Positions 139 to 12,342 are shown, numbered from the stretch's first letter. The stretch: DNA of 12,353 nucleotides from Candidatus Acetothermia bacterium (GCA_046543235.1 JBKGZT010000038.1:1-12353); one strand, 5' to 3'. A program made the numbers and translations. Notes: a model not told the origin generated them from the sequence alone.

Positions 139-753
139 CTACTCGCCTTCCCCTTCCTCTATCACCGTCAGTTCCCGACGGCACTCCGGACAGAGAATCC
201 TGATCCTATCGCTTCTGTGGCTCGGGCGCTCCTTTAACCTATCCCGGCGGGCGAGGTCGAGGTTTTCCAGGTAGGTCAGGAAAATACCCGGATTCGAGTA
301 AGCAACGTTTCCCAGCTTGTCGTACAGCCAGAGCAGGTGATCCCTGGTTCCGACTACTTCTCCACAGGCGTCACAAATTACCAGGTCCTTCTCGGTTTCG
401 GACCTCGGGCCCTCGTCCCCGCTAAACGACAGGGCGTATTCCCGCGAGAGCTCTATTCCTTCCCCCGTGGTACAGAACTTCTCGCACTGCCCACAGTAAA
501 TACATTCCTCCAGGTGGACGCTGAGCTTTCTCTCACCGCCAGCTCCATCCACCGAATCGTCCAGATGAATGGCATCCGCCGGACAGACGTGGTAGCAGCC
601 GCTACAGCCGACGCAACCGTCGGGCTGGTATTCCGGCGCTCCGCGGAAAGACGATGCCAGGTCGGCCTCCTCCTCCGGAAACCTGGAAGTAAACCTCCCT
701 GAAAATACGGCCCTTACTGCTTCTGCCAGCTCCCGGACCTTCGGTTTCTTCAT
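139..753 (-). CDS. NuoI/MbhN/HycF-like 2x[4Fe-4S] ferredoxin-like subunit of a group 4 hydrogenase, with an extra C-terminal CxxC...CxxC site
   Basis: 204 aa. It has an N-terminal FTSRFP...FRGAP signature, CVGCSGCYHVCP and CIYCGQCEKFCT motifs, and later CDAC and CPEC. The ATG overlaps the mnhG stop (ATGA), with SD GAGGAGG upstream. Confidence 0.9.
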   Translation of the reverse strand: MKKPKVRELAEAVRAVFSGRFTSRFPEEEADLASSFRGAPEYQPDGCVGCSGCYHVCPADAIHLDDSVDGAGGERKLSVHLEECIYCGQCEKFCTTGEGIELSREYALSFSGDEGPRSETEKDLVICDACGEVVGTRDHLLWLYDKLGNVAYSNPGIFLTYLENLDLARRDRLKERPSHRSDRIRILCPECRRELTVIEEGEGE

Positions 754-1076
754 GACTTATCCTCCTCGTATTTGTCGACCAGACTTCCTTCCCAGAGAGG
801 TATTCCGGATTCGTGGGCTCCGCGCGAAAGGGCGTGTGCCGCCGTAGGTGCAGTAATGACTATGAAGAGAATCGCGGCCAGAGCCTTCAAACCGGTGGGA
901 CTAACCCCTGAACTGATTAGGACGCCCAGGAGAATTGAACAGGTTCCCAGGGTAACGCATTTTGTAGCCCCCTGAAGCCTGTTATATACGTCTGGTAGCC
1001 TTATCAGGCCGATACAGCCGAACAAATTGAACAAAGTTCCGATGACTACTATCGCTTTTCCGGCTAGTTCACTCAT
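750..1076 (-). CDS. mnhG: Mrp/Mnh Na+/H+ antiporter subunit G (MbhC-like)
   Basis: GLIRLPDVYNRLQGATKCVTLG and TAPTAAHALSR are MnhG signatures. Start moved from 1106 to the ATG at 1076 (MSELAG...), which has GGAGGG upstream and overlaps the mnhF stop; 108 aa. Confidence 0.92.
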   Translation of the reverse strand: MSELAGKAIVVIGTLFNLFGCIGLIRLPDVYNRLQGATKCVTLGTCSILLGVLISSGVSPTGLKALAAILFIVITAPTAAHALSRGAHESGIPLWEGSLVDKYEEDKS

Positions 1077-1326
1077 CGAATTTCTTACCCTCCAGGTGTT
1101 TGGCAAGAGCAGTAGTGCCGATAAAACTCAACAACCCCCATGCCAGTGCGATGTTGAGGTAAAACGCCCTTTCAGTAATGAGCGTTAGAAGACCACAGAA
1201 TCCCACCACTAAAATACCCAGTATGTCTATTCCAACCATTCTATCGGCGGGGGTCGGCCCCGAACCTATCCTGTAAAGGCAGAGAAACGCGGATAAGGTC
1301 AGTAAACCGAGGCTGAAACTTATCAT
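1069..1326 (-). CDS. mnhF: Mrp/Mnh antiporter subunit F (MbhB-like)
   Basis: 85 aa hydrophobic protein with the YRIGSGPTPADRMVGID motif (GPtxxDR) and FIGTTALAKHL. ATGA overlap with mnhE; SD GGGGAGG. Confidence 0.92.
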   Translation of the reverse strand: MISFSLGLLTLSAFLCLYRIGSGPTPADRMVGIDILGILVVGFCGLLTLITERAFYLNIALAWGLLSFIGTTALAKHLEGKKFDE

Positions 1327-1859
1327 TCGAATATCCTCCCCAGTAACGGTTCGAACCTGCCCACGATTTCGCGGGTTGAAGCTTCGACGTCCGTGGAACT
1401 GATGTTAATCCAGTGGACGTAGAGATAGCCGTCTTCGGAGATATCGACTGTCATCGTCCCCGGAGTCAAGGTAATCGAATTCGCCAGCGCCGTTCTGGCC
1501 GAGTCGCTTTCCAGATCAGTTTCGACCTTTACTATACCCGGGTTAATCGGCACGTCCGGGTGCAAAACCCGGAAAGCGACGTCAAAATTGGCCACCACTA
1601 CCCACCAGGCAAGAACGAAGACGTAACAGCCGGCCCAAAAATATCGAACCAAGTTCAACCCTTTTCCGGGGTGCTCGGTCGCCAAACCTTCCAGGAGTAC
1701 TCCGGACAGGCCGGCAACAACGGCTCCAGCAACTACCATTGGCCAGCTCACGGGGCCGAAAGGCCAGGTAAATAAAAGCCAGACCCCAAAGGTCAACGAG
1801 AAGACGAAGAGAATTCTGGAAAACTTCGTATTCTTTCCAGCTTTTTCCACTGTAATCAC
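1323..1859 (-). CDS. mnhE: Mrp/Mnh antiporter subunit E (MbhA-like)
   Basis: PGIVKV...LANSITLTPGTMTVD...LYVHWI is the MnhE signature. The GTG start at 1859 lies 4 nt after the mnhD stop and has a weak SD, so the exact start is uncertain. Confidence 0.9.
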   Translation of the reverse strand: MITVEKAGKNTKFSRILFVFSLTFGVWLLFTWPFGPVSWPMVVAGAVVAGLSGVLLEGLATEHPGKGLNLVRYFWAGCYVFVLAWWVVVANFDVAFRVLHPDVPINPGIVKVETDLESDSARTALANSITLTPGTMTVDISEDGYLYVHWINISSTDVEASTREIVGRFEPLLGRIFE

Positions 1860-1863
1860 CCAA

Positions 1864-3369
1864 TTATAAGCCCAGGACCAGTTCCGTATATCGGGTACCT
1901 TCCTGTAAAGCCGTGGCGGCCGGCTTTAATACTATCCCCCGAATTTCAGGCAGATATAGCAACCCAAGACCGACACAGCAGATAGCCAAAATTACCAGCG
2001 GGATGTACAATCCGGGAGAAATCGTCCCGGATAGCCCGGCCTCGTCGGTAATCTCACCCAGAAATAGCTCCTTTTGAACTTTGAGATAATAGGCAAGGGT
2101 GACCGCGCTTGTAATCAGGACGATCCCGGCCAGGGCGTACATTTCACCCCAGATAGCCGCTATGACTATTACCAGCTTGCTCCAGAATCCGTTAAATGGA
2201 GGAATCCCCGATATCGATAGCGTACCTATTGTTCCTGTCGCGCCGGAAACGGGACTAACCCGGGTTATCCCACCGATTTCCCTCAGATCCCTCGTCCCGT
2301 AAAGCTTTTCAACGCCACCGCTAAACAGGAACAACAGGGATTTGTAAGTTGCGTGGTTGACCAGATGAAATATCCCGCCTATCAGTGCCAGAGTCGCTAT
2401 AGCCGGTTTATCTTGAGCAATCAGGGTTCCACCCATGCCGAGCCCAAGCGTGATATAACCCATCTGAGAGACGCTTGAATAAGCCAGCAACCTCTTGAGG
2501 TCCTTCTGCCCCAGCGCGATCATACCCCCGATAAACATCGACCCCGCCCCGATCCAGGTCAATATCCCCGGTGCCAGCTCCGGCAGATTGAGACCGTTAA
2601 ACAACAATCTCGCCAGGGCGTAGATACCGAGGACCTTTATCAGCACCCCTGACAGCATGGCTGAAATCGGCGTCGGGGCTGAAGAATGAGCATCCGGCAA
2701 CCACGAGTGGAACGGAACGAACGCAGCTTTGAGACCGAAGCCGACGATAAACAGGGCGGTACTGAGGAAGATAAAGGACTCCTGCTCCAGCTCGCTCACC
2801 CTGACGGAGATATCCGCGATGTTGAGCGAGCCGACCGAACCGTAGAGCAACGCTATACCCAGCAATATGAATATAGACCCCACGGCTCCCATAACGAGGT
2901 ACTTGAAGGAGGCCTCTATCTCCTCCGGGCCTCGATTGAACCCGACGAGCGCGTAGGAGCTTATCGCGGCGACTTCGAGGTAGACGTACATGTTGAAGAC
3001 GTCCCCGGTGAGCGCTACACCGTAGATTCCGGCCAGCATTAGCGAAAACAACCCGTAGAACTTACCCTGGTTTTCGTACTCGCTCATGTAGGTGAAAGAA
3101 AACAGGGCAGTTACGAGAGCTATCGCGCTTATCACTACCAGCAACAACGAGCTAAGACCGTCCAGGACGTAATTGATCCCTACCGGGGGAGGCCAGCCGG
3201 CCAACCTGTAGATCCCCCGATCACCGAATTTTACCAGGGAAAGCGCAAGCAAGAACCCGGTTTGAAGGATCATGGCCCCGGCAAATAACCTGGTCCGCTC
3301 CTTAAATTTTTCTATCAGCGGCAACAGAAAACCGATACCCAGCGGTACTGCCACGAACAATGGGAGCAT
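1864..3369 (-). CDS. mnhD: Mrp/Mnh antiporter subunit D (MbhH/NuoN-like proton-translocating subunit)
   Basis: 501 aa polytopic protein with GDVFNMYVYLEV (TM5 Glu), GLKAAFVPFHSWLPDAH, SAMLSGVLIKV, DLKRLLAYSS, NHATYKSLLF and GIPPFNGFWSK. SD GAGGGGG. Confidence 0.92.
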   Translation of the reverse strand: MLPLFVAVPLGIGFLLPLIEKFKERTRLFAGAMILQTGFLLALSLVKFGDRGIYRLAGWPPPVGINYVLDGLSSLLLVVISAIALVTALFSFTYMSEYENQGKFYGLFSLMLAGIYGVALTGDVFNMYVYLEVAAISSYALVGFNRGPEEIEASFKYLVMGAVGSIFILLGIALLYGSVGSLNIADISVRVSELEQESFIFLSTALFIVGFGLKAAFVPFHSWLPDAHSSAPTPISAMLSGVLIKVLGIYALARLLFNGLNLPELAPGILTWIGAGSMFIGGMIALGQKDLKRLLAYSSVSQMGYITLGLGMGGTLIAQDKPAIATLALIGGIFHLVNHATYKSLLFLFSGGVEKLYGTRDLREIGGITRVSPVSGATGTIGTLSISGIPPFNGFWSKLVIVIAAIWGEMYALAGIVLITSAVTLAYYLKVQKELFLGEITDEAGLSGTISPGLYIPLVILAICCVGLGLLYLPEIRGIVLKPAATALQEGTRYTELVLGL

Positions 3370-3375
3370 TCTTTA

Positions 3376-3726
3376 TTACCCCCTCAACTTCCGTATTTCC
3401 GTGATGTCGAAGGTTCCGTAGTGCTGGTATAACCTTACGGCCAGAGCAACCATCAGTGCCACGACGCCCAGGCTAATTACTATCGAAGTAATTACCAGTG
3501 CTTGAGGCAGGGGATCCACGGCAGTACTCAAGAACTCCTGAACCGATGCCTCTTCCGAGATAATCGGTGCCTCTCCCGACATCCTGTACCCGATCAGGAT
3601 AAGAAAGGCGTTCACGGCGTGCTCCATGATGATTATACCCATGATTATCTTAATCAAGTTCCTCTTGTTTATGACGCTGTAAAGCCCGACGGCAAACAGG
3701 ATAAACGCAAGCAGATAGGTAAACAT
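3376..3726 (-). CDS. mnhC: Mrp/Mnh antiporter subunit C (MbhG/NuoK-like)
   Basis: KRNLIKIIMG and DPLPQALVITSIVI signatures. Start moved from 3804 to the ATG at 3726 (MFTYLL...), 1 nt after the mnhB stop with SD GAGGAGG; 116 aa. Confidence 0.93.
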   Translation of the reverse strand: MFTYLLAFILFAVGLYSVINKRNLIKIIMGIIIMEHAVNAFLILIGYRMSGEAPIISEEASVQEFLSTAVDPLPQALVITSIVISLGVVALMVALAVRLYQHYGTFDITEIRKLRG

Positions 3727-3727
3727 C

Positions 3728-4171
3728 TCAATCCTCCTCGATAGCCCGGAACGTAGCGAGAAAGGCAAAAACCATGAAGATCGAGCCGCCGACCTTGAAC
3801 CCAATTGCGAGGTTGATTATCGGCATGTTGCCACCGCTCAACAGGCCAAACGGTTCTCCCGGAAATCCCGACTGAATAAAATTACTCAGGAAGGCTCCGC
3901 CGAAGACGTAACCAAGAAATCCCATGCAGAGAAACGAGAGAGAGGCAAGGCTATCCGTTATTTCGGCAGCCCCGGTATCAAAAACCCCGTCCACCTTCTC
4001 CTTCCCAAACGCCAGGGTAAGCAGAATAAAGCAACCGGCGATGATCACGCCACCGGGAAAGCCTCCACCCGGAGTCAGATGCCCGGTCAGAGCTATATAG
4101 ATCCCGAAGGCGATTATAAACGGAGCGACCCAGCGGGTAACCGTCTTTACGATCTTGCTCATTCCGCTCAT
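3728..4171 (-). CDS. mnhB: MnhB-domain antiporter subunit (MbhF-like)
   Basis: 147 aa with GHLTPGGGFPGGVI and a C-terminal NLAIGFKVG, both typical of MnhB. SD GGGGAGGAG. Confidence 0.9.
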   Translation of the reverse strand: MSGMSKIVKTVTRWVAPFIIAFGIYIALTGHLTPGGGFPGGVIIAGCFILLTLAFGKEKVDGVFDTGAAEITDSLASLSFLCMGFLGYVFGGAFLSNFIQSGFPGEPFGLLSGGNMPIINLAIGFKVGGSIFMVFAFLATFRAIEED

Positions 4172-4173
4172 CT

Positions 4174-4716
4174 TTACTCCTCCCCTTCGTAGAAAACTTC
4201 CTTCCGCAGCAGCGTGATAGCACCGAGAATAGCGGCAAAGAGCACTGTCGCCTCACCCAGCGTATCGTAGGCCCGGAAGTCCATCAGGATGTCGTTAACT
4301 ATGTTCGAGCCGCCGGCCGCATCCAGTCCGGATTCCAGGTAAAACCCACTGGCCGTTTCGGAAAAGGTATCCATGGCGGCTTCGCCGAACTCGGGAAAAA
4401 CGCTGAGGTAATTGGCGAAAAAGGCCGAACCGAGACCAAATAGAACCAGACTTCCAATTAACATCGGCTTGCCCTCGTTTCCCCTGATTTCCGTTACGCC
4501 TTTACCGATCGTGGCCCTGATAAGAATTACCAGCGTCAAGATCTCTACTACTACCTGAGTAATGGCGATATCCGGAGCTCCCAGCCAGAGAAAAGCGATA
4601 CTCAGCCCAAAACCCACCGCTCCAAGGGAAATTATGGAAGAAAGCGTGGAAGGAGCCTCTACGGCAATCAGAGCGGCAATTATCGTAAAGACCAGAAAGA
4701 CCTGAATGAGAACCAT
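4174..4716 (-). CDS. DUF4040 / MbhD+MbhE-like membrane subunit (corresponds to the C-terminal part of MrpA)
   Basis: 180 aa. LGAPDIAITQVVVE (MbhD/DUF4040) is followed by GGSNIVNDILMDFRAYDTLGEATVLF (the MbhE/MrpA 'NxVnxIlxDfRxxDTxxE' motif). Confidence 0.88.
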   Translation of the reverse strand: MVLIQVFLVFTIIAALIAVEAPSTLSSIISLGAVGFGLSIAFLWLGAPDIAITQVVVEILTLVILIRATIGKGVTEIRGNEGKPMLIGSLVLFGLGSAFFANYLSVFPEFGEAAMDTFSETASGFYLESGLDAAGGSNIVNDILMDFRAYDTLGEATVLFAAILGAITLLRKEVFYEGEE

Positions 4717-4729
4717 CCTACCAACCCCG

Positions 4730-6601
4730 TTATTGAGTAGTTAGAAGCCAGAGTACTACGATCAGACCGGCAAACACCCACACCAGATAACGCGAGAGCA
4801 ACCCGTTATGCGCTCGGCGTAACGACCTGGTAAAAGCCTTCCCCACCCAGTTAGTGACCACGTAGGGATCGATGAACTTACGCTCTTCCGCGACGTAGAT
4901 CCAGTTGACCAGCCTCGAATTCCTCACGCTTTTATATATCTCGGAAGGGTTTGCGCCAAAATCCAGGTCCTCGAGATAGGGGAAGTACTTGTCCCTGTCG
5001 ATCGTTTCCGCGTTCTCGCCTCCGAGAAAAGCCGGCTTCCTGCTGGACCGCTTTTTAAGGCCGAAGAGGGCATATATAGCAACCCCAACTACTATAGCAC
5101 CAATCAGGAAAGCCGCAGCCATGTAGCCGACCCACGTACCCGTGAATAGAGGTATCCCACCTAAAATCGGCCTGACTGTATCCAGCAACAGGCGCGGGTA
5201 TACGCCGAGGCCGATGCATAGTAGGGCAGGCACAGCCACGGCCGTCTTCATCCACCCATCGGGATACCTCTTCACCTCGCTCTCTTTCTCTCCAAAAAAA
5301 GCCGAAAACAGGAACTTCGAAATGTAGATAACCGACAGCGTACTACCGAACAATGCCGCCACCAGAATAAACGGGGCAAAGTTTCGCTCGAATCCGATGG
5401 AAGCCTGGTACAGCACCCACTTGGAGTAAAACCCGTTTAGCGGCGGAACTCCCGCAAGGGAGAGCGCACCGACCGAGGTCGAGGCAAATACCAGAGGTAA
5501 TTCCTTACCCAGGCCTCCCATCTCGTCCAGTTTCCTGGTACCCGTGACGTAGACGACTATTCCCGCCCCAAAGAAGAGCAACCCCTTGAAGAGGGCGTGG
5601 TTAATCAGGTGAATCACCCCTCCGGCTATTCCCAGGCCGGTGCCAATACCTATTCCTACCATGATATAGCCTACCTGCGATATGCTGGAATAGGCAATCA
5701 GCCGTTTTAGATCGTTCTGAACTATCGCCAGCAGTCCACCGATCACGATCGTAAAGGCCCCTATTACTGCCAGCGCGCTGCCCCAGGCAGGGGAAGTCTC
5801 GAACAATTCCCAGAAGATCCTGAGGATCCAGAACAGGCCGACCTTTATCATAATCCCGGAAAGGAGGGCGGAAATCGGAGAAGGGGCCTCCGGGTGGGCA
5901 TCGGGCAGCCAGGAGTGAATCGGGAAGAATGCCCCCTTTACGCCGAAACCGAGCAGGAACAGTGCCAGGATCGCAAGTCCCGTCCCGGAACCGGCAGGGT
6001 TGATCCCCTGGAGGCCGCTCAACTGGGTCGTCCCCAGAGTTACCCAGGCCAGCACGATCCCCGCGAGAATCGCCAGGGCGCCGATCTCGCTCATCAGGAA
6101 GTACTTGTTACCAGCTTTGACGGAGTTCGGGGTCCGTTCGAAGGTAATGAGAAAGTACGCCGCGAGGGTCATTAACTCCCAGAAGACGAACATCGTAAAG
6201 AGCTCCGTAGCCATCACTGCCCCGATCATCCCACCCATGAAACCCAGGAGAAGCCCGTAATACTTGTTCTCGTTCGTCGGTTCCTCGTACCTCTCCAGAT
6301 ACCTCATCGAGAAGGCCGAGGCGAGAAAACAGAACAGCGAGATCAACGAAACCATTAGAAGAGACAGGGGGCCAAGCCCAAACGAAATTACGATTCCACC
6401 GACTTCCTTGCTGAAAAACTCCAGGCTACCGGATTGAACGGCGGGGAAGAAGGAAAGGGAGAAACCGAAAACCCCCAGAGTCACCACCGAGGGAATGATA
6501 TTCCGTAACTTCTGACTTACTCTGCCCGCTATCCAGGCCACGGGACCACCTACCAGAGGAAAGAAGAGCAGTCCCAGGCCGTAAACCCCTATTTCACTCA
6601 T
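4730..6601 (-). CDS. Large antiporter-like proton-translocating subunit (HyfB/NuoL/MrpA-MrpD family) with a NuoL-like C-terminal extension
   Basis: 623 aa with FVFWELMT, GVKGAFFPIHSWLPDAHPEAPSPISALLSGIMIKVG, DLKRLIAYSSISQ, NHALFKGLLF and GVPPLNGFYSKW. It ends in AHNGLLSRYLVW plus a hydrophobic helix. SD GGAGGAGGT. Confidence 0.9.
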   Translation of the reverse strand: MSEIGVYGLGLLFFPLVGGPVAWIAGRVSQKLRNIIPSVVTLGVFGFSLSFFPAVQSGSLEFFSKEVGGIVISFGLGPLSLLMVSLISLFCFLASAFSMRYLERYEEPTNENKYYGLLLGFMGGMIGAVMATELFTMFVFWELMTLAAYFLITFERTPNSVKAGNKYFLMSEIGALAILAGIVLAWVTLGTTQLSGLQGINPAGSGTGLAILALFLLGFGVKGAFFPIHSWLPDAHPEAPSPISALLSGIMIKVGLFWILRIFWELFETSPAWGSALAVIGAFTIVIGGLLAIVQNDLKRLIAYSSISQVGYIMVGIGIGTGLGIAGGVIHLINHALFKGLLFFGAGIVVYVTGTRKLDEMGGLGKELPLVFASTSVGALSLAGVPPLNGFYSKWVLYQASIGFERNFAPFILVAALFGSTLSVIYISKFLFSAFFGEKESEVKRYPDGWMKTAVAVPALLCIGLGVYPRLLLDTVRPILGGIPLFTGTWVGYMAAAFLIGAIVVGVAIYALFGLKKRSSRKPAFLGGENAETIDRDKYFPYLEDLDFGANPSEIYKSVRNSRLVNWIYVAEERKFIDPYVVTNWVGKAFTRSLRRAHNGLLSRYLVWVFAGLIVVLWLLTTQ

Positions 6602-7793
6602 CTAGGACCTCCTCCAGTGGACTTTTCTTCAGCCCTAGCTCCTCCTTTAACTCCTCCGTTTTTTCGTGACTTGCTTTCATCAGGTCGACCCCTTTCCTTC
6701 CCTTCAGACTGATGGCCCGTTCCGTGCAGCTATAACAGGGATCGACGGAAGCCAGAATAATCGTGGCATCGGCCACCGTCTCGCCTATACACGTCGCCTT
6801 GTACGTCGGGAAATTCATAAAGGTAGGAGCGCGAATTTTGTGACGAACCGGCCTGTTCGTTCCGTCGCTCTCTACGTAGTGGAAGCATTCCCCTCGAGGG
6901 GCTTCGTAGTTCCCTATACCCTCTCCCGGCGGTACCTTCTCCGGTTCGGAATCGATTGGACCGTCTTCGGGGATTTCTTCGATAACCTGCTCCACCATCT
7001 TTATCGATTCCAGGGTTTCCAGCAGCCGGACCTCCACCCTCGCCAGGACGTCACCTGCCTCCCGGGTAATCACGTTCCAGTCCAGATCATCGTATACGCC
7101 GTACGGATAATCGGTTCTGACGTCTATAGGGATTCCCGAGGCCCGGACCGTCGGACCCAGCGCACCGTAGGCACGGGCATCTTCCTCGGCCAGTATCCCC
7201 ACTCCCTCGAGCCGGGCCTTCATGACCGGGTCGTCCAGCACGGCGTCGTACAGCATCTCCGACTTTTCCTTCAGGGTGTCCAGAGTTGGTTTCACTTCTT
7301 CCAGTTGCCCCGGGTCGATTTCCCTCTGAACGCCACCCGGCTTCATCATAGCGTAGGCGTTTCTGTTCCCCGTAAGGGTTTCCAGGATATCAAGCACGTC
7401 CTCTCGATACTTCCAGGCCCACATAAACACGGTATCGTAGCCGATAAAGTGTCCGGCCAGACCGGCCCAGAGAAGGTGAGAATGAATCCTCTCCAGTTCA
7501 CCGATCAGCGTCCTTATGTATTTGGCTCTTTCCGGGACCTCTATACCTCCGCAGTCTTCGACGGCCAGACAGTAAGCGTAAGGGTGAGAATGAGAACATA
7601 TCCCACAGACACGTTCTACGAGGAAGGGAACCTGGTTGAACGTCTTCTTCTCGGATAGCTTTTCTATTCCCCGGTGGTTATAGCCAATCTGGACGTCCAC
7701 GTCCAGCACTTCCTCTTCTTCAACCGTCAGGAGATAATGCTCGGGTTCCTCCTGCAAAGGATGGTACGGTCCGATGGGTACGGTAGTAGCCAT
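6594..7793 (-). CDS. Group 4 [NiFe]-hydrogenase large (catalytic) subunit, MbhL/EchE/NuoD-like
   Basis: Contains IGPYHPLQEEP, GYNHRGIEK, the L1 motif ERVCGICSHSH (RVCGIC at 7596-7613), ELERIHSHL, EAPRGE and the L2 motif DPCYSCTER (6717-6743), followed by a 40-aa tail. The ATG at 7793 is preferred over the GTG at 7802 because GGAGG directly abuts that GTG. Confidence 0.95.
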   Translation of the reverse strand: MATTVPIGPYHPLQEEPEHYLLTVEEEEVLDVDVQIGYNHRGIEKLSEKKTFNQVPFLVERVCGICSHSHPYAYCLAVEDCGGIEVPERAKYIRTLIGELERIHSHLLWAGLAGHFIGYDTVFMWAWKYREDVLDILETLTGNRNAYAMMKPGGVQREIDPGQLEEVKPTLDTLKEKSEMLYDAVLDDPVMKARLEGVGILAEEDARAYGALGPTVRASGIPIDVRTDYPYGVYDDLDWNVITREAGDVLARVEVRLLETLESIKMVEQVIEEIPEDGPIDSEPEKVPPGEGIGNYEAPRGECFHYVESDGTNRPVRHKIRAPTFMNFPTYKATCIGETVADATIILASVDPCYSCTERAISLKGRKGVDLMKASHEKTEELKEELGLKKSPLEEVLDE

Positions 7794-7794
7794 A

Positions 7795-8253
7795 TCATTC
7801 ACCCTCCAGGTCCTCTACCTCGAAGTCCTTTCGGTAAGGAAAGTCATTGTCCCCGACCGATTCCGCCTTGAGCAACCTTTTTTGAGCCGGATGGTTCTCG
7901 AACTCGATCCCGAACATCTCCCGTACTTCCCGCTCTATCCACTCCGCCCCCGGTATGGTTTTCGCTATGCTCTCCGTTGAAGGCTCCTCGTCTTTCTCCA
8001 CGGGAAGCTTAACCGTAACCATTACCCCCCGCTCGTCAAGGGAAAAATGGTAGAGGAGCTTGAATTCTTCCTCTTCATCCTTACAAGTTATCGTGGCCAG
8101 CCTGCCGCCCTTCTCCTCTAACAGGAACTCGACAAGTTTTTCGAATATCTCCGGTTCCGGGCTGATGTAAAGCCTCCTACGGCCCTTGTTCGCCTTACCG
8201 AGTTTCCAACCAAACCTGCCCCTCAGCTCCTCTTCGAATTCGGCAGAATTCAT
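7795..8253 (-). CDS. NuoC/MbhK-like (complex I 30 kDa family) hydrogenase subunit
   Basis: RLATITC, LLYHF and SIAKTIPGAEWIEREVREMFGIEFENHP...RLL match the NuoC signature. Start moved from 8325 to the ATG at 8253 (MNSAEF...), which gives an ATGA overlap with the upstream stop; 152 aa. Confidence 0.9.
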   Translation of the reverse strand: MNSAEFEEELRGRFGWKLGKANKGRRRLYISPEPEIFEKLVEFLLEEKGGRLATITCKDEEEEFKLLYHFSLDERGVMVTVKLPVEKDEEPSTESIAKTIPGAEWIEREVREMFGIEFENHPAQKRLLKAESVGDNDFPYRKDFEVEDLEGE

Positions 8254-8696
8254 ACTCCCACTTCCCTGAGTCGATCGAGACCGGCATCCAGTCCCTCGAT
8301 TATCGCCTCCGGTCGAGGGGGGCAACCCGGGATGTTTACCACGGTCAAGTCCTCGTCGACGTCCCCGATCACTTCCCTAACCGGACCGACGCAGTTGTAG
8401 GCATCGTAAAATATCCCCTTCGAACAGGCGCACGTCCCCACGGCCGCGACGATAAACGGTCTGGCCGAAGCTTCGAGGATCCTCTCAAAACGCGGTTTCG
8501 ACTTTCTGGTAATCGGACCGGTAACCATCAGCACGTCGGCGTGTCTCGGCGAGCCGACGAGTTTTCCGCCGACCCGCTCGACGTCGAACTTCGGAGTCAG
8601 GCAATCGACTATCTCTATGTCACAGTTGTTACAGGAACCCGTATTTACGTGATAGAGCCAGGGAGACTTGCTTATCCCCCAACTTTTCCAGTTCAT
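8250..8696 (-). CDS. Group 4 hydrogenase small subunit, NuoB/MbhJ-like, with one proximal [4Fe-4S] cluster
   Basis: 148 aa with GSCNNCDIE, SPRHADVLMVTG, VGTCA and IPGCPPRPEAI. The CxxC spacing is hydrogenase-type, not the tandem CC of complex I NuoB. SD GGAGGT. Confidence 0.94.
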   Translation of the reverse strand: MNWKSWGISKSPWLYHVNTGSCNNCDIEIVDCLTPKFDVERVGGKLVGSPRHADVLMVTGPITRKSKPRFERILEASARPFIVAAVGTCACSKGIFYDAYNCVGPVREVIGDVDEDLTVVNIPGCPPRPEAIIEGLDAGLDRLREVGV

Positions 8697-8714
8697 TGAA
8701 CCGATACCTCCGTA

Positions 8715-9647
8715 TTATAACCAGCCTATCCCGATTAGGTCTCCGGTTATCGCCAGAACCAGCCCCAGCAGGGCAAGGGGAGCGGCACCGTACCAGAAAA
8801 ACCGAAGGGCCTGGTCCGACCTCAACCTCGGATTCGTGTTCTTGATTAGGATTACAGCCACCAGGACGAGGACGTATTTTAGTCCTCCCCACAACGCGCC
8901 CCAGCCACCGCCGAAACCACCGAGAAATACGGTGACCAAAAACAGCGGCAGGACCAGAAGCGCCATTAGATGAGAGATCTTAAATAAACCGAGAAGCGGC
9001 CCGGAATACTCGATCAGCGGACCGCCCATTAACTCCGTTTCGGCTTCCGGCGTATCGAAAGGAACGAACCCGAGCTCGGCCTGGATGCAAAATAACGCCG
9101 CGACAAAAGCGAGCGCCCCGGAAACGCTCGCGACGATCGGTTTCCCGGTAAACGCAACCAGCTTCAGCCCTCCGCCGGTCCTTACTATTGCCGCCGTGAC
9201 GGCTAGCAGCAGGGGCAATTCGTAGGAAACTATCAACCTCAACTCGCGGTTGGATCCCATGCTAGAGAGGGGGTTCCCGGAAGACATCCCGCCCAAAACG
9301 ACCGAGAGAGCGGGTAATACGAGCAAATACAGCACGACTATTACGTCTCCCAGAAAGGAAGTTCCCGGGTAGTTTGCCTTTACCAGGATTATCGAAGCAA
9401 GCAACAGCCCGGCCGGCCCGAGCAGGGGGACGAGCAGATAACTCCACTCCGTGCTTTCCTCCGGAATTATATTCTCCTTCCCGAACAGCTTCGCGATATC
9501 GTAGACGGGCTGCAGCAAAGGAGGGCCAACTCGCCACTGTACAAGAGCGGAGACCTTTCTAACCAGCCAGGAAGCCAGAATTCCCGCCGCGAGGGTAAAC
9601 AAAAGCCCGGGAAAGACGAAAAAATCGAAGACCAAACCTCCTACCAT
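8715..9647 (-). CDS. NuoH/MbhM/HycD-like membrane anchor subunit
   Basis: 310 aa with RKVSALVQWRVGPPLLQPVYDIAKLFGKE, SYE, PFDTPEAETELMGGPLIEYSG and PRLRSDQ. TAATG overlap with the upstream gene. Confidence 0.94.
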   Translation of the reverse strand: MVGGLVFDFFVFPGLLFTLAAGILASWLVRKVSALVQWRVGPPLLQPVYDIAKLFGKENIIPEESTEWSYLLVPLLGPAGLLLASIILVKANYPGTSFLGDVIVVLYLLVLPALSVVLGGMSSGNPLSSMGSNRELRLIVSYELPLLLAVTAAIVRTGGGLKLVAFTGKPIVASVSGALAFVAALFCIQAELGFVPFDTPEAETELMGGPLIEYSGPLLGLFKISHLMALLVLPLFLVTVFLGGFGGGWGALWGGLKYVLVLVAVILIKNTNPRLRSDQALRFFWYGAAPLALLGLVLAITGDLIGIGWL

Positions 9648-10189
9648 TACTTACCCCCTTTACGACCCAGGGTTTTCGGCTGCCAGCCACTGACATGAAC
9701 CATGAGCCCATCCCTCAACTCGTGCCAGTCCTCCCCTTTCGGCTCGTGTCCCGCCGGTACCAGCTTGAGCCCGTCGTGAGGGCAGGTGGAGACGCAGGAA
9801 GGTTCCCCTTCCCTTCCTTCGCATAGGTCACAGCTTGAATCCAGGAAGGGAATGAAGTCCGTGTAAATCGTCCCGAACGGACAGGCCATAACGCAGGAAT
9901 CACAGCCGATACAGAGCAGGTTCGCCCGCTCCACCAGACCTTCGTCGTTCTTCTCCAGCGCATCGACAGGACAGGCCCTCAGGCATGCCTGGTCCTCGCA
10001 TTCCCGGCAGTAATGAGCAAAAGTAGCCTGCTCCCTTAAATCCAGGACTCCGTTATTCCCCGGATGGGCCTGATTATCACATTGGACCTCGCAGCTCTCG
10101 CAATCGAACCCGTCGCAGACGTCCAGATCCAACAACAGGGTCCCGTCCTTCGTGGTCGCCGTTTTCCCGTCAGTTTTCATTCCGATCAC
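9647..10189 (-). CDS. Multi-[4Fe-4S] electron-transfer protein (HycB/CooF/DmsB-like polyferredoxin)
   Basis: Four Cys groups: CDGFDCESCEVQC, CRECEDQACLRACP, CIGCDSCVMACP and CDLC...PSCVSTCP. The start is either GTG 10189 (GTGA overlap) or ATG 10180. Confidence 0.88.
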   Translation of the reverse strand: MIGMKTDGKTATTKDGTLLLDLDVCDGFDCESCEVQCDNQAHPGNNGVLDLREQATFAHYCRECEDQACLRACPVDALEKNDEGLVERANLLCIGCDSCVMACPFGTIYTDFIPFLDSSCDLCEGREGEPSCVSTCPHDGLKLVPAGHEPKGEDWHELRDGLMVHVSGWQPKTLGRKGGK

Positions 10190-11040
10190 TCCCAGAGATC
10201 CGGAATACCTTTGACCTGGTCATAGGTAAATACCGGACCGTCCTTACAGACGTAGTACTGACCGAGCTGACAGTGTCCGCACATACCAATCCCGCAACTC
10301 ATGTTCTTCTCCAGGGAGAGATAGATGTCCTCGGGCTCGAAGTGATCCAGCAGGGTTTGGGCCGTAAACTTCATCATGATCGGAGGGCCACATACCACGG
10401 CCACCCCTTCTTCCGTATCTATATCCGGGTCGTCCAGCAAGGTGGTCACGACCCCTTCGTTTCCCTCCCAGTCCTCGTCGGCCTCGTCGACGGTCAGCTC
10501 CAGTTCTATCTCCGAGCCAGAATCCCAGCTATCCAGCTGGTCCTTGTAAATCAGGTATTCCGGCGTGTTGGCGCCGTATTTCAGGCTTATCCGTCCGAAT
10601 TCGGAGGAGTTATCGGTCAGTGCGTAAAGCAGTGACCTCAGAGGGGCTAGACCGACTCCCCCGCCGACCACCAGGACGTCCCGCCCCCGCATCTCGTCCA
10701 GGGGATAACCCTCTCCGTAAGGCCCTCTAATTCCCAAAGTTTCTCCGGGGGAGGTCCGGTGTAACCTTCCGGTGACCTCACCGGCCTCCATGATCGTGAT
10801 CTCCATTTTCTCGGCTACTGCAGGAGAGGAAGAAGGGGTAAAAGGAGCTTCCCCCAGGCCGGGCACGGACAACTGGACGAATTCCCCGGTTGCGAACTCG
10901 ATCGGCCTCTCCGGAACCAGCTCAAAGGTCTTTATATTGGGGCATTCCTCTTTGATATCAGTTATTTCCGCCGGAACCGAGCTATAGGGGTTTTCCAGCT
11001 CTTCGAGCTCCTCCTCTTCTAACTCAACTCGCGTTTGCAA
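10186..11040 (-). CDS. FAD/NAD(P)-binding oxidoreductase with a C-terminal [2Fe-2S] site (AsrB / sulfhydrogenase HydG / PyrK / FlxA family)
   Basis: 284 aa with GEFVQLSVPGLGEAPF, RGPYG, GGGVGLAPLRS, VCGPPIMM and MSCGIGMCGHC...VCKDGPVF. TTG start with GGAGGT 5 nt upstream. Confidence 0.92.
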   Translation of the reverse strand: MQTRVELEEEELEELENPYSSVPAEITDIKEECPNIKTFELVPERPIEFATGEFVQLSVPGLGEAPFTPSSSPAVAEKMEITIMEAGEVTGRLHRTSPGETLGIRGPYGEGYPLDEMRGRDVLVVGGGVGLAPLRSLLYALTDNSSEFGRISLKYGANTPEYLIYKDQLDSWDSGSEIELELTVDEADEDWEGNEGVVTTLLDDPDIDTEEGVAVVCGPPIMMKFTAQTLLDHFEPEDIYLSLEKNMSCGIGMCGHCQLGQYYVCKDGPVFTYDQVKGIPDLWE

Positions 11041-12058
11041 TTGAGACCTCCTTCAAAACGTCCCGCATATCTATCTCGCCCATGCAGCCGTCAATACACC
11101 TTCCACAACCCGTACAACCGTAGATATCGTGGTTCTCCGGTATTCGGCCGAACTTGTCGTAAAACCGGTTTCGGACGCGGCTCTCCAGAGATTCCATTGG
11201 GTTTGCCCCGCCAGCCACTCGGCTGAAACCCTCGAAGTTACAGCTATCCCAAACTTTATTACGACTTACGCTGCCCTCTTCACGCTGCTCGTAGAGCTGA
11301 AAACAATGACAGGTGGGACAGGATAGGTTACAGGCACCGCATTCGACGCAGTCTTCGGCAAATTGCCCCCAGAGGGGGTCGTCCGCCGGAAGGGCGGAGA
11401 GGTCCTCCGGCACTTCGAAATCACTGTTGTTTTTCTCCAGCTCCTTCTCCAGGGATTCCCTGAACGTCCGCCGTCTCTCCAGCATCTCCTCCGATGCCGG
11501 CGCGAAGAGATCAGAATTCTCCTCGTAGACTTCCTGCCCGCGGAGGGAATCCGAATTGACCTCGACGAGCAAGTCGTCGAGATCGGGGAGTTTCGTGACG
11601 TTCAAATCGAAGCCCTCCTCCGGATAAGGTCGGCTCTCGACCTTATTACAGAAACAGGTGTCGGAAGCTTCGTAGCAGTCACTTGAGATCAACAGGGTGT
11701 CGTGGCGCCTGAACGCGTAATACGGGTCGATTACCTCTTCCCCGAGAAATACGTTATCGAGCACCCGGAGCGAACCCAGATCGCAGGATTTGACCCCGAA
11801 GATGGCCTGCTTTCTTCTCTCCGGGCCCTTCTCCCCTTCGGGAAACTCCGCTACCTCTTCTTTTGGAGGAGTAAAAAAGACTTTCGGAGGCGTCGGTAGC
11901 CTGTTTTTCGGGAAGTGAACAGGAGAATCTCCCAACTCACTCCATTTGGTGTAAGAGATTTCGCCATGGGATTCGACGGGGACGAAAAGGTCCCTGCCGG
12001 AGGCGACGTTATCCAGGAGGGTAAGAAAGTTCTCCTCCGAGAGGCGATAGAGATCCAT
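11024..12058 (-). CDS. 4Fe-4S dicluster protein of the AsrA / sulfhydrogenase HydB (beta) / FlxCD family
   Basis: Contains FGVKSCDL, C...TCFC, CVECGACNLSCPTCHC, WDSC, RVRNRFYDKF and GCTGCGRCIDGC. Start moved from 12091 to the ATG at 12058 (MDLYRL...), preceded by AAGGGAGGTATT; 344 aa. Confidence 0.9.
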   Translation of the reverse strand: MDLYRLSEENFLTLLDNVASGRDLFVPVESHGEISYTKWSELGDSPVHFPKNRLPTPPKVFFTPPKEEVAEFPEGEKGPERRKQAIFGVKSCDLGSLRVLDNVFLGEEVIDPYYAFRRHDTLLISSDCYEASDTCFCNKVESRPYPEEGFDLNVTKLPDLDDLLVEVNSDSLRGQEVYEENSDLFAPASEEMLERRRTFRESLEKELEKNNSDFEVPEDLSALPADDPLWGQFAEDCVECGACNLSCPTCHCFQLYEQREEGSVSRNKVWDSCNFEGFSRVAGGANPMESLESRVRNRFYDKFGRIPENHDIYGCTGCGRCIDGCMGEIDMRDVLKEVSIANAS

Positions 12059-12308
12059 AATACCTCCCTTAAATTGGTGGTAATGCCGCAAAAGTTTCTG
12101 CCGGAAGCCAGTAATCGTCCTTTAAGACAGCTTGACTTCGAAGCTACTTGGCCCTAGTTTTCGGAGCCCGCTGCCATTTATTTTTCCCGCTAGTACTCTG
12201 CAGGTAAATCGGTCAAGGACTTATCCATTCCCGGTGAGCCACTTCAGGGAGGTATCATTTACGTCGGCTCAAGAGTGAGAAAAGTTGCGTGAATATGATC
12301 CTTTTCAC
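12056..12308 (-). promoter_or_regulatory. Long (~250 nt) structured 5' leader; candidate translational attenuator or riboswitch-like element
   Basis: It lies between the promoter and the first ATG. A perfect 10-bp inverted repeat (12060-12069 with 12246-12255) covers the SD, and several local hairpins were found by eye. No known RNA family was recognised. Confidence 0.45.
12062..12070 (-). promoter_or_regulatory. Shine-Dalgarno site of the first operon gene
   Basis: The minus strand reads AAGGGAGGT-ATT-ATG, with the ATG at 12058. Confidence 0.8.
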
Positions 12309-12310
12309 AT
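12293..12310. promoter_or_regulatory. Possible repressor operator (Rex- or CRP-family-like palindrome) at the predicted transcription start
   Basis: The minus strand reads ATGTGAAAAGGATCATAT: 9/10 match to TGTGA-N6-TCACA and 10/14 to TTGTGAA-N4-TTCACAA. It starts 4 nt downstream of the -10 box. Confidence 0.35.
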
Positions 12311-12314
12311 TCCT

Positions 12315-12342
12315 ATTATACATACATCTAACACTTTGTCAA
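12315..12342 (-). promoter_or_regulatory. Sigma70/SigA-type promoter, TTGACA-N16-TATAAT
   Basis: Plus-strand tgtcaa at 12337-12342 is the -35 TTGACA and attata at 12315-12320 is the -10 TATAAT, with a 16-nt spacer. It sits in the AT-rich end of the window and points into the operon. Confidence 0.85.

Follow-up and report, generated by a model that had tools for sequence, protein, structure and literature searches.

What donates electrons to a membrane-bound [NiFe]-hydrogenase whose operon begins with a flavoprotein module resembling parts of a soluble enzyme? The question is raised by a stretch of 12,353 nucleotides (nt) from a Candidatus Acetothermia bacterium (GCA_046543235.1, JBKGZT010000038.1:1-12353), hereafter the window, meaning the whole stretch that was analysed. 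In the window, 16 genes on the minus strand, running from position 12058 to 139, form one operon that encodes a group 4 [NiFe]-hydrogenase, a Mrp-type set of membrane subunits and, at its head, an Fe-S protein, a flavoprotein and a polyferredoxin. An initial annotation made from the sequence alone had proposed an ion-translocating H2:NAD(P)+ oxidoreductase. The architecture is already known and has been named Hun, and the window is a Candidatus Acetothermia/Bipolaricaulota member of this biochemically uncharacterized family. We consider a reversible, ion-translocating hydrogenase linked to NAD(P)H, the reduced nicotinamide nucleotides, to be the most likely function suggested by the sequence evidence set out below, with a probability of roughly 55%.

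With starts picked behind GGAGG-like Shine-Dalgarno sequences, each gene either overlaps its neighbor by 1-17 nt or lies no more than 18 nt from it, and the widest intergenic gap, 18 nt, lies between the NuoH (hunD) and NuoB (hunE) genes. The operon opens with the hunA ATG at 12058, which has GGGAGG ahead of it, and its last stop codon is at 139. Open reading frames (ORFs), Pfam and NCBIfam domains and the Shine-Dalgarno-guided starts thus bear out the gene content, the single operon without gaps above 18 nt and the two ends described in the initial annotation. The genes, all on the minus strand, are as follows.

11024..12058, minus strand: hunA, HydB/ShyB/AsrA-like Fe-S protein of 344 amino acids (aa) with a Fer4_22 domain (Pfam, PDB match, conservation)
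10186..11040, minus strand: hunB, HydG/ShyC/AsrB-like flavoprotein with FAD_binding_6, NAD_binding_1 and DHODB 2Fe-2S domains (Pfam, NCBIfam, PDB)
9647..10189, minus strand: hunC, HycB/CooF/HydN-like polyferredoxin with 16 cysteines (Pfam, NCBIfam, PDB)
8715..9647, minus strand: hunD, NuoH/HycD/MbhM-like membrane subunit (Pfam NADHdh, 3.9e-63)
8250..8696, minus strand: hunE, NuoB-like hydrogenase small subunit (Pfam Oxidored_q6)
7795..8253, minus strand: hunF, NuoC-like subunit, likely start ATG 8253 (Pfam Complex1_30kDa)
6594..7793, minus strand: hunG, group 4 [NiFe]-hydrogenase large subunit with a 40-aa C-terminal extension (Pfam, L1/L2 motifs, PDB)
4730..6601, minus strand: hunH, MrpA/NuoL-like antiporter subunit (Proton_antipo_M, 3.8e-69)
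4174..4716, minus strand: hunI, fused MbhD and MbhE domains, the C-terminal part of MrpA (Pfam, NCBIfam)
3728..4171, minus strand: hunJ, MnhB/MrpB-like (Pfam)
3376..3726, minus strand: hunK, MrpC/NuoK-like, likely start ATG 3726 (Pfam)
1864..3369, minus strand: hunL, MrpD/NuoN-like antiporter subunit (Pfam, NCBIfam)
1323..1859, minus strand: hunM, MrpE-like (Pfam)
1069..1326, minus strand: hunN, MrpF-like (Pfam)
750..1076, minus strand: hunO, MrpG-like, likely start ATG 1076 (Pfam)
139..753, minus strand: hunP, HycF/NuoI-like 2x[4Fe-4S] subunit (Pfam Fer4, NCBIfam, PDB)

The case for a nicotinamide nucleotide as electron donor begins with the first two subunits. The sole strong PDB match of HunA, covering residues 4-331 of 344, is the beta subunit of Pyrococcus sulfhydrogenase 1 (9nez_B, 9.5e-44), and the best match of HunB, covering residues 47-282, is the gamma subunit of the same enzyme (9nez_C, 5.9e-53), followed by PyrK and NfnA-type proteins. 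All NCBIfam scores are below the family cut-offs: HunA reaches 183.9 bits for ShyB, 157 for HydB and 109.7 for AsrA (AsrA cut-off 323.15), while HunB reaches 211.5 for AsrB (cut-off 288.6) and likewise remains below the cut-offs of ShyC and HydG. By these scores, HunA and HunB form a subfamily of their own relative to ShyBC, HydBG and AsrAB.

We examined the conservation of this front module with a large-subunit profile built from 22 aligned sequences and scanned against one genome per species, which recovered at least 597 relatives among at least 600 matched stretches. All locus statistics refer to the best 80 of these, that is, to the closest relatives (55-88% identity), on which the 16 proteins of the window were placed by tblastn. 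In 62 of the 63 loci with at least 4400 nt 5' of the large subunit, the three front genes (AsrA-like, AsrB-like, polyferredoxin) precede it on the same strand and in the same order; in the exception (L059) the contig end falls 604 nt short of its polyferredoxin gene. Three more loci with 4228-4356 nt upstream have all three front genes, and the remaining 14 are too short. On the downstream side, hunP is found in 53 of 54 loci with sufficient DNA and at least six of the eight Mrp-type genes in 51 of 54. Absence of the front genes from relatives had been set beforehand as a possible refutation; since they are kept in 62 of 63 assessable loci, the front module is no chance neighbor of the hydrogenase. 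Among the 80 loci, 14 are without a phylum label and the others fall under 21 named ones, the largest being Omnitrophota (25), Bacteroidota (11) and Planctomycetota (10). The nearest named relatives of the window are a protein from a Candidatus Acetothermia metagenome-assembled genome (MAG; HunA, 99%) and Candidatus Bipolaricaulota/Bipolaricaulia (large subunit, 84%), and the closest species-level locus among the matches listed, L001 (large subunit, 88%), is labelled "uncultured Thermotogae bacterium."

The cofactor motifs of the front module are intact across these relatives. All 64 HunB sequences keep the flavin motif PFTPSS, the nucleotide motifs GGxGxxP and CGP and the four cysteines of the 2Fe-2S cluster without change, and 15 cysteines of HunA are invariant in 60 of 60 sequences. 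The sulfhydrogenase gamma subunit binds flavin adenine dinucleotide (FAD) and NADPH, and AsrB is the NADH-binding subunit of AsrABC. The 16 cysteines of HunC in the window are enough for four 4Fe-4S clusters, and among 63 HunC sequences eight cysteines are invariant and six nearly so. The invariant cysteines of HunA exceed the need of three cubane clusters by three (C250, C252 and C273, in CPTCHC...C). Rows with apparent in-frame stops were dropped from the alignments (three for HunA, two for HunB, four for HunC, three for the NuoB small subunit and four for HunG), and four more rows were omitted, among them a HunA fragment (L071), a HunB fragment (L054) and the HunC of L076 (in-frame-stop filter); all but one of the apparent in-frame stops in the ORFs of the loci were BLAST matches extended beyond gene ends.

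The PDB matches of the two remaining Fe-S subunits suggest how this module could be attached to the hydrogenase. Those of HunC include HycB4 and HycB3 of the hydrogen-dependent CO2 reductase (HDCR; 7qv7) and HycB of the Escherichia coli formate hydrogenlyase (FHL; 7z0s_B), and HunP is closest to HycF of FHL (7z0s_F, 5.5e-19, versus 3.5e-9 for MbhN). These HycB-type and HycF-type matches point to a peripheral arm built like that of FHL, in which a HydBG-type flavoprotein pair would occupy the place of FdhF. The suggestion of the initial annotation that the polyferredoxin is the bridge to the hydrogenase fits these solved structures. Twelve cysteines of HunP are invariant in 56 of 56 sequences, eight of them cluster ligands and the other four (C127, C130, C188 and C191) possible ligands of an extra metal site, which may be a zinc ribbon or a further cluster.

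The hydrogenase itself has the group 4 features that were looked for: the motifs L1 (RxCGxCxxxH) and L2 (DPCxxCxx[HR]), a NuoB-type small subunit and NuoC-, NuoH- and NuoI-like partners. Both [NiFe] motifs of the window's HunG are intact (L1 RVCGICSHSH, L2 DPCYSCTER), no change occurs in the four Ni-Fe cysteines of HunG among the family members compared (77/77) or in the four NuoB-type cysteines of HunE (73/73), and the best PDB matches of HunG are MbhL (6cfw_L, 1.5e-90) and then HycE (7z0s_E, 5.8e-82). Within L2, CYCC occurs in 70 and CYSC in seven of the 77 sequences; the CYSC of the window is thus a minority variant in the same clade as CYCC and no ground for exclusion from Hun. All 77 HunG proteins have a C-terminal extension of 31-48 aa (40 residues in the window), a HycI-type maturation protease gene lies within 300 nt 3' of hunP in 27 of the 48 loci with sufficient downstream DNA, and hyp genes recur close to related hun loci. 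The universal extension, together with the nearby protease gene, argues for a matured and active hydrogenase. One relative (L080) has an in-frame TGA at HunG codon 44 (near L080:10118), at the invariant glycine of the GYNHRGIE motif, which could stem from an assembly error or from recoding, or mark a pseudogene. The Mrp-type set is complete, with MrpA/NuoL, MbhD and MbhE, MnhB, MrpC, MrpD, MrpE, MrpF and MrpG domains (Pfam).

Comparison with known systems shows what the operon combines and what it leaves out. Membrane-bound hydrogenase (MBH) of Pyrococcus furiosus (group 4d, 6cfw) shares the group 4 [NiFe] core and a full Mrp-type arm but is without HunA, HunB and HunC and receives electrons from ferredoxin at MbhN, whereas HunP is closer to HycF. 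E. coli FHL-1 (group 4a, 7z0s) has an arm likewise lengthened by a HycB-type polyferredoxin on a HycF-type subunit; its donor enzyme, however, is the molybdopterin protein FdhF, where the window has the HunAB flavoprotein pair. FHL-1 is also not known to have a full Mrp set. The beta and gamma subunits of P. furiosus sulfhydrogenase I (group 3b, 9nez) are homologous to HunA and HunB lengthwise and have the cofactor motifs in common, but that enzyme is soluble and the two subunits serve group 3 alpha and delta subunits, while the hun operon has only NuoD/NuoB-type ones. As for AsrABC, AsrC is missing from the hun operon and the AsrA and AsrB scores are sub-cut-off. Pfam and NCBIfam revealed no AsrC or siroheme subunit, no group 3 hydrogenase subunit and no Hdr gene among the operon genes, in agreement with the initial annotation, and Pfam detected no molybdopterin domain and no NuoE, NuoF or NuoG domain in the window; the NiFe ligands are kept, unlike in respiratory complex I, where a quinone site replaces NiFe.

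The initial annotation knew of no characterized complex with this makeup and foresaw that similar clusters might already exist in uncultured genomes; the second point held, whereas novelty of the architecture did not. A putative operon for 16 subunits, HunA-P, is set out in the Hun passages of Glass et al. (bioRxiv 10.1101/536078), with the same gene order as in the window, from an AsrA-like to a NuoI-like gene. They list as carriers Atribacteria, Firmicutes, Omnitrophica, Elusimicrobia, Bacteroidetes, deep-biosphere MAGs and Kosmotoga isolates, and place HunG in HydDB group 4g yet distant from other 4g enzymes, with the motifs CGIC and CYCC. Candidatus Acetothermia/Bipolaricaulota is not among the lineages named in these passages, and the window has CYSC rather than CYCC. 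A related group 4 cluster was reported in Saganbacteria RX5A (Matheus Carnevali et al., 2019, PMC6349859); in the account of that cluster it comprises Mrp-like subunits and a molybdopterin enzyme together with cooF, asrA and asrB, referred to as an "oxidoreductase module," and it differs from the window in adding the unclassified molybdopterin oxidoreductase, for which six of the 62 related loci have an insert of fitting size. The hydrogenase passages of two further papers describe the Ace Lake Omnitrophota, Cloacimonadota and Auribacterota versions as "group 4g, Mrp-linked" and assume ferredoxin as donor (PMC8542988, PMC9324843).

Directly observed are the genes present, their conserved order, the intact cofactor motifs and the homologies; from these we infer the subunit contacts, donor, direction and coupling ion of the following scheme. 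The core of HunD-G and HunP would be mounted on a full Mrp-type ion-translocating membrane arm, HunH-O, and the cytoplasmic arm would be lengthened by the four-cluster HunC and capped by HunA (Fe-S) and HunB (FAD, 2Fe-2S and NAD(P)-binding). NAD(P)H would reduce the HunB FAD, from which electrons would pass through the HunB 2Fe-2S cluster, the HunA clusters, four clusters of HunC, two of HunP and one of HunE to the NiFe site of HunG. Proton reduction would be coupled at the HunG/HunD interface to movement of H+ or Na+ via the Mrp arm. At low ambient H2 the complex would release the electrons of NAD(P)H as H2 and need the gradient little or not at all, and at high H2 it would make NAD(P)H while pumping ions.

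The upstream regions of the relatives bear on the regulation of the operon. We searched the 300 nt 5' of hunA for the 18-nt box TTGTGAA-N4-TTCACAA, which we take to be the Rex operator consensus, allowing at most two mismatches in 14 positions. Such boxes precede hunA in 13 of 58 loci; their density there is 0.79 per kb, about 100-fold that in the remaining locus DNA (0.0076 per kb). Twelve near-perfect TGTGAA-Nx-TTCACA palindromes lie ahead of hunA, compared with 0.62 in shuffles, and 11 of the 12 are spaced by exactly N4 (loci with the N4 form within 300 nt 5' of hunA include L007, L021, L030, L036, L037, L040, L050, L062, L063 and L070), the twelfth being an N10 repeat in the window. Moreover, rex-like genes adjoin the hun operon in 11 loci, in ten of them upstream of hunA (among the 55 loci whose upstream DNA spans 1 kb or more); in L001 the rex gene, with both Rex domains confirmed, lies 233 nt 3' of hunP (L001:8525-9139). 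Predicted Rex control in relatives shows a role in redox balance.

Several points weigh against a NAD(P)H-linked function. Electron transfer from NAD(P)H to H2 is endergonic at standard conditions, by about 18 kJ/mol from textbook potentials. The initial annotation called this reaction uphill, which is true at standard conditions; calculated with textbook values, however, the reaction from NADPH becomes favorable at an H2 pressure of a few Pa and a NADPH couple near -370 mV, so that it could be downhill at H2 levels of sediments. The direction of the reaction would therefore be set by the environment. Because HunA and HunB score below the NCBIfam cut-offs for ShyB, HydB and AsrA and for ShyC, HydG and AsrB, respectively, their putative function is transferred only by homology, and the sequence cannot separate NADH from NADPH. 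The region upstream of hunA in the window has no Rex box at up to three mismatches, and Rex control in relatives is no pointer to the donor, since Rex boxes also lie 5' of the ferredoxin-dependent Ech operon of Thermoanaerobacterium (PMC5886521, Table 5). In the full-text literature, with few subscription journals covered, we found no biochemical or structural study of any Hun complex, and the only paper that names Hun proposes, in its Hun passages, ferredoxin as the electron source of HunABC (bioRxiv 10.1101/536078).

That proposal is the most serious alternative, and we judge it unlikely. HunABC would act as an Fe-S antenna for reduced ferredoxin, H2 evolution would drive H+ or Na+ export as in Pyrococcus MBH, and the NAD(P) site of HunB would be vestigial, structural or regulatory. 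The Hun passages of Glass et al. (bioRxiv 10.1101/536078), in which NADPH is absent and NADH occurs once, are joined by the HydDB entry for group 4g, which gives coupling to ferredoxin as putative and the role as undetermined (PMC5037454), and by the MAG papers that assume ferredoxin in their hydrogenase passages (PMC8542988, PMC9324843). The closest solved core is that of the ferredoxin-dependent MBH (6cfw_L), and in four loci a gene for a NIL-domain 2x[4Fe-4S] ferredoxin, which could be a dedicated ferredoxin partner, lies 78-171 nt 5' of hunA (L010:4886-5290, scanned as the representative; L016:5235-5639; L056:5237-5641; L057:4823-5275). However, if the site were vestigial, the FAD, NAD(P) and 2Fe-2S motifs would not all be expected to stay unchanged in 64 of 64 sequences across many phyla, MBH takes electrons from ferredoxin without any such module, and the closest solved relatives of HunAB come from sulfhydrogenase, an enzyme that uses NADPH. 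The NAD(P)H link of the initial annotation thus gains from the lengthwise homology to sulfhydrogenase I beta and gamma and from the invariant cofactor motifs, although the published reading is ferredoxin; as a donor, NAD(P)H is a plausible candidate, with arguably stronger support than ferredoxin has. We found no NAD(P)H proposal for Hun in the same body of full-text literature, nor, apart from the two MAG papers on Hun and on the Saganbacteria cluster, anything that bears on a characterized NAD(P)H-linked Mrp hydrogenase; PMC7082340, PMC9585477 and 10.1101/322537 were without relevant content.

A second alternative, which we regard as rather improbable, is a complex with two donors, in which ferredoxin (at HunC or HunP) and NAD(P)H (via HunAB) would feed one Fe-S chain and the enzyme would stand in, coupled to the membrane, for confurcating [FeFe]-hydrogenases or would also move electrons from one donor to the other. 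The long and branched-looking Fe-S inventory, with four clusters in HunC and four extra invariant cysteines in HunP, would suit such a complex, as would Rex control in relatives. In the hydrogenase passages on Ace Lake, each Omnitrophota MAG has a single hydrogenase type, 4g, A3, 3b or 3d (PMC8542988), which suggests equivalent redox-balancing roles for these types. On the other hand, no bifurcating flavin site is evident, HunB being the sole flavoprotein and of a simple PyrK/HydG type, and an uncoupled short circuit from ferredoxin to NAD(P) would waste energy. Finally, HunAB could be a module that reduces sulfur, polysulfide or sulfite, so that the complex would couple H2 or membrane energy to sulfur reduction; AsrAB are such a case, and the same was formerly suggested for sulfhydrogenase beta/gamma. 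The homology of HunAB to sulfhydrogenase beta/gamma and AsrAB and the Joint Genome Institute label "sulfhydrogenase subunit beta (sulfur reductase)" of some HunA relatives might point to this role, which is highly improbable given the missing AsrC or siroheme subunit in the operon, the fully conserved NiFe ligands and maturation signature, unlike in sulfur reductases of the membrane-bound sulfane reductase (MBS)/Mbx type, and the lack of recurring sulfur-handling genes in the flanks of the loci.

The NAD(P)H-linked function preferred here goes further than the published interpretation and gains from the conservation of the motifs. Group 4g/Hun enzymes are widespread in a great many uncultured anaerobes, Omnitrophota, Planctomycetota, Bacteroidota and Atribacterota among them, and metabolic reconstructions routinely show them as ferredoxin-driven H2 producers. 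If HunAB are NAD(P)H-linked, the models for sediments and digesters would need revising in their redox balance, H2 flux and energy yield, and Hun would be a second, independent complex-I-like machine with a nucleotide-oxidizing head. In a broader hypothesis, which we advance tentatively and would not back at quite even odds, Hun would work as a reversible NAD(P)H:proton oxidoreductase that translocates Na+/H+, a functional mirror of complex I whose group 4 hydrogenase gained its nucleotide module independently, in a HydBG-type form rather than as NuoEFG. Found under more than 20 phylum labels and often Rex-controlled, it would then serve many uncultured fermenters and acetogens as their main means of matching NAD(P)H to H2, with an ion gradient either conserved or spent in the process. 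We know of no characterized hydrogenase class with such a reversible ion-translocating NAD(P)H:proton function.

Upstream of hunA, the window contains two candidate regulatory elements.

12315..12342, minus strand: promoter-like site TTGACA-16 nt-TATAAT, a 12/12 match to the sigma-70 consensus (consensus match only), about 250 nt 5' of hunA
12287..12308, minus strand: inverted repeat TGTGAA-N10-TTCAC(G), candidate operator, directly 3' of the -10 hexamer

The promoter-like site is the sole 12/12 match among six such sites, and shuffles average 5.8 sites. The N10 spacing of the repeat differs from the N4 of the Rex-type boxes ahead of hunA in relatives. We rejected a Rex box in the window, as the sole site with three mismatches overlaps the hunB ribosome-binding site and the N10 repeat has the wrong spacing. 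A riboswitch was also ruled out: the leader (12059-12310, about 250 nt) gave no Rfam match at E <=1, and its fold energy is ordinary (z = -0.93). A longer ORF starting with TTG at 12091 was rejected as hunA because this start is worse than ATG 12058 with its GGGAGG. At the other end, where the window stops 138 nt past hunP, a plus-strand ORF (1-237) has no family match, overlaps the 3' end of hunP and was treated as spurious.

Some relatives differ in operon composition. An insert of 1.6-1.8 kb separates hunB from hunC in six of 62 loci (L030, L038, L048, L060, L074 and L075), and in each of the two inserts scanned (L030:1980-3725 and L075:5864-7738) the product is a divergent molybdopterin oxidoreductase about 580-620 aa long. 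This appears to be a variant of the operon resembling formate hydrogenlyase; the Hun passages of Glass et al. likewise mention an occasional molybdopterin protein between HunB and HunC (bioRxiv 10.1101/536078). On an unrooted HunG tree the six insert-carrying loci require three changes, being clustered but in more than one clade. L021 has an unrelated 3.8 kb insert at the same place (L021:3375-6847), encoding a protein with a prepilin-type N-methylation motif and ORFs of 668 and 310 aa without a Pfam match. In three other loci (L022, L023 and L027) hunP directly follows hunG, which suggests that the hydrogenase and Mrp modules are separable; in L022 the Mrp-type genes are found upstream, on the other strand, and in L023 none follow downstream. 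The intergenic DNA 3' of hunP in L001 has no conservation with the window, and in that locus convergent TrkH/TrkA genes for potassium uptake come after the hun operon and rex (L001:9243-11346).

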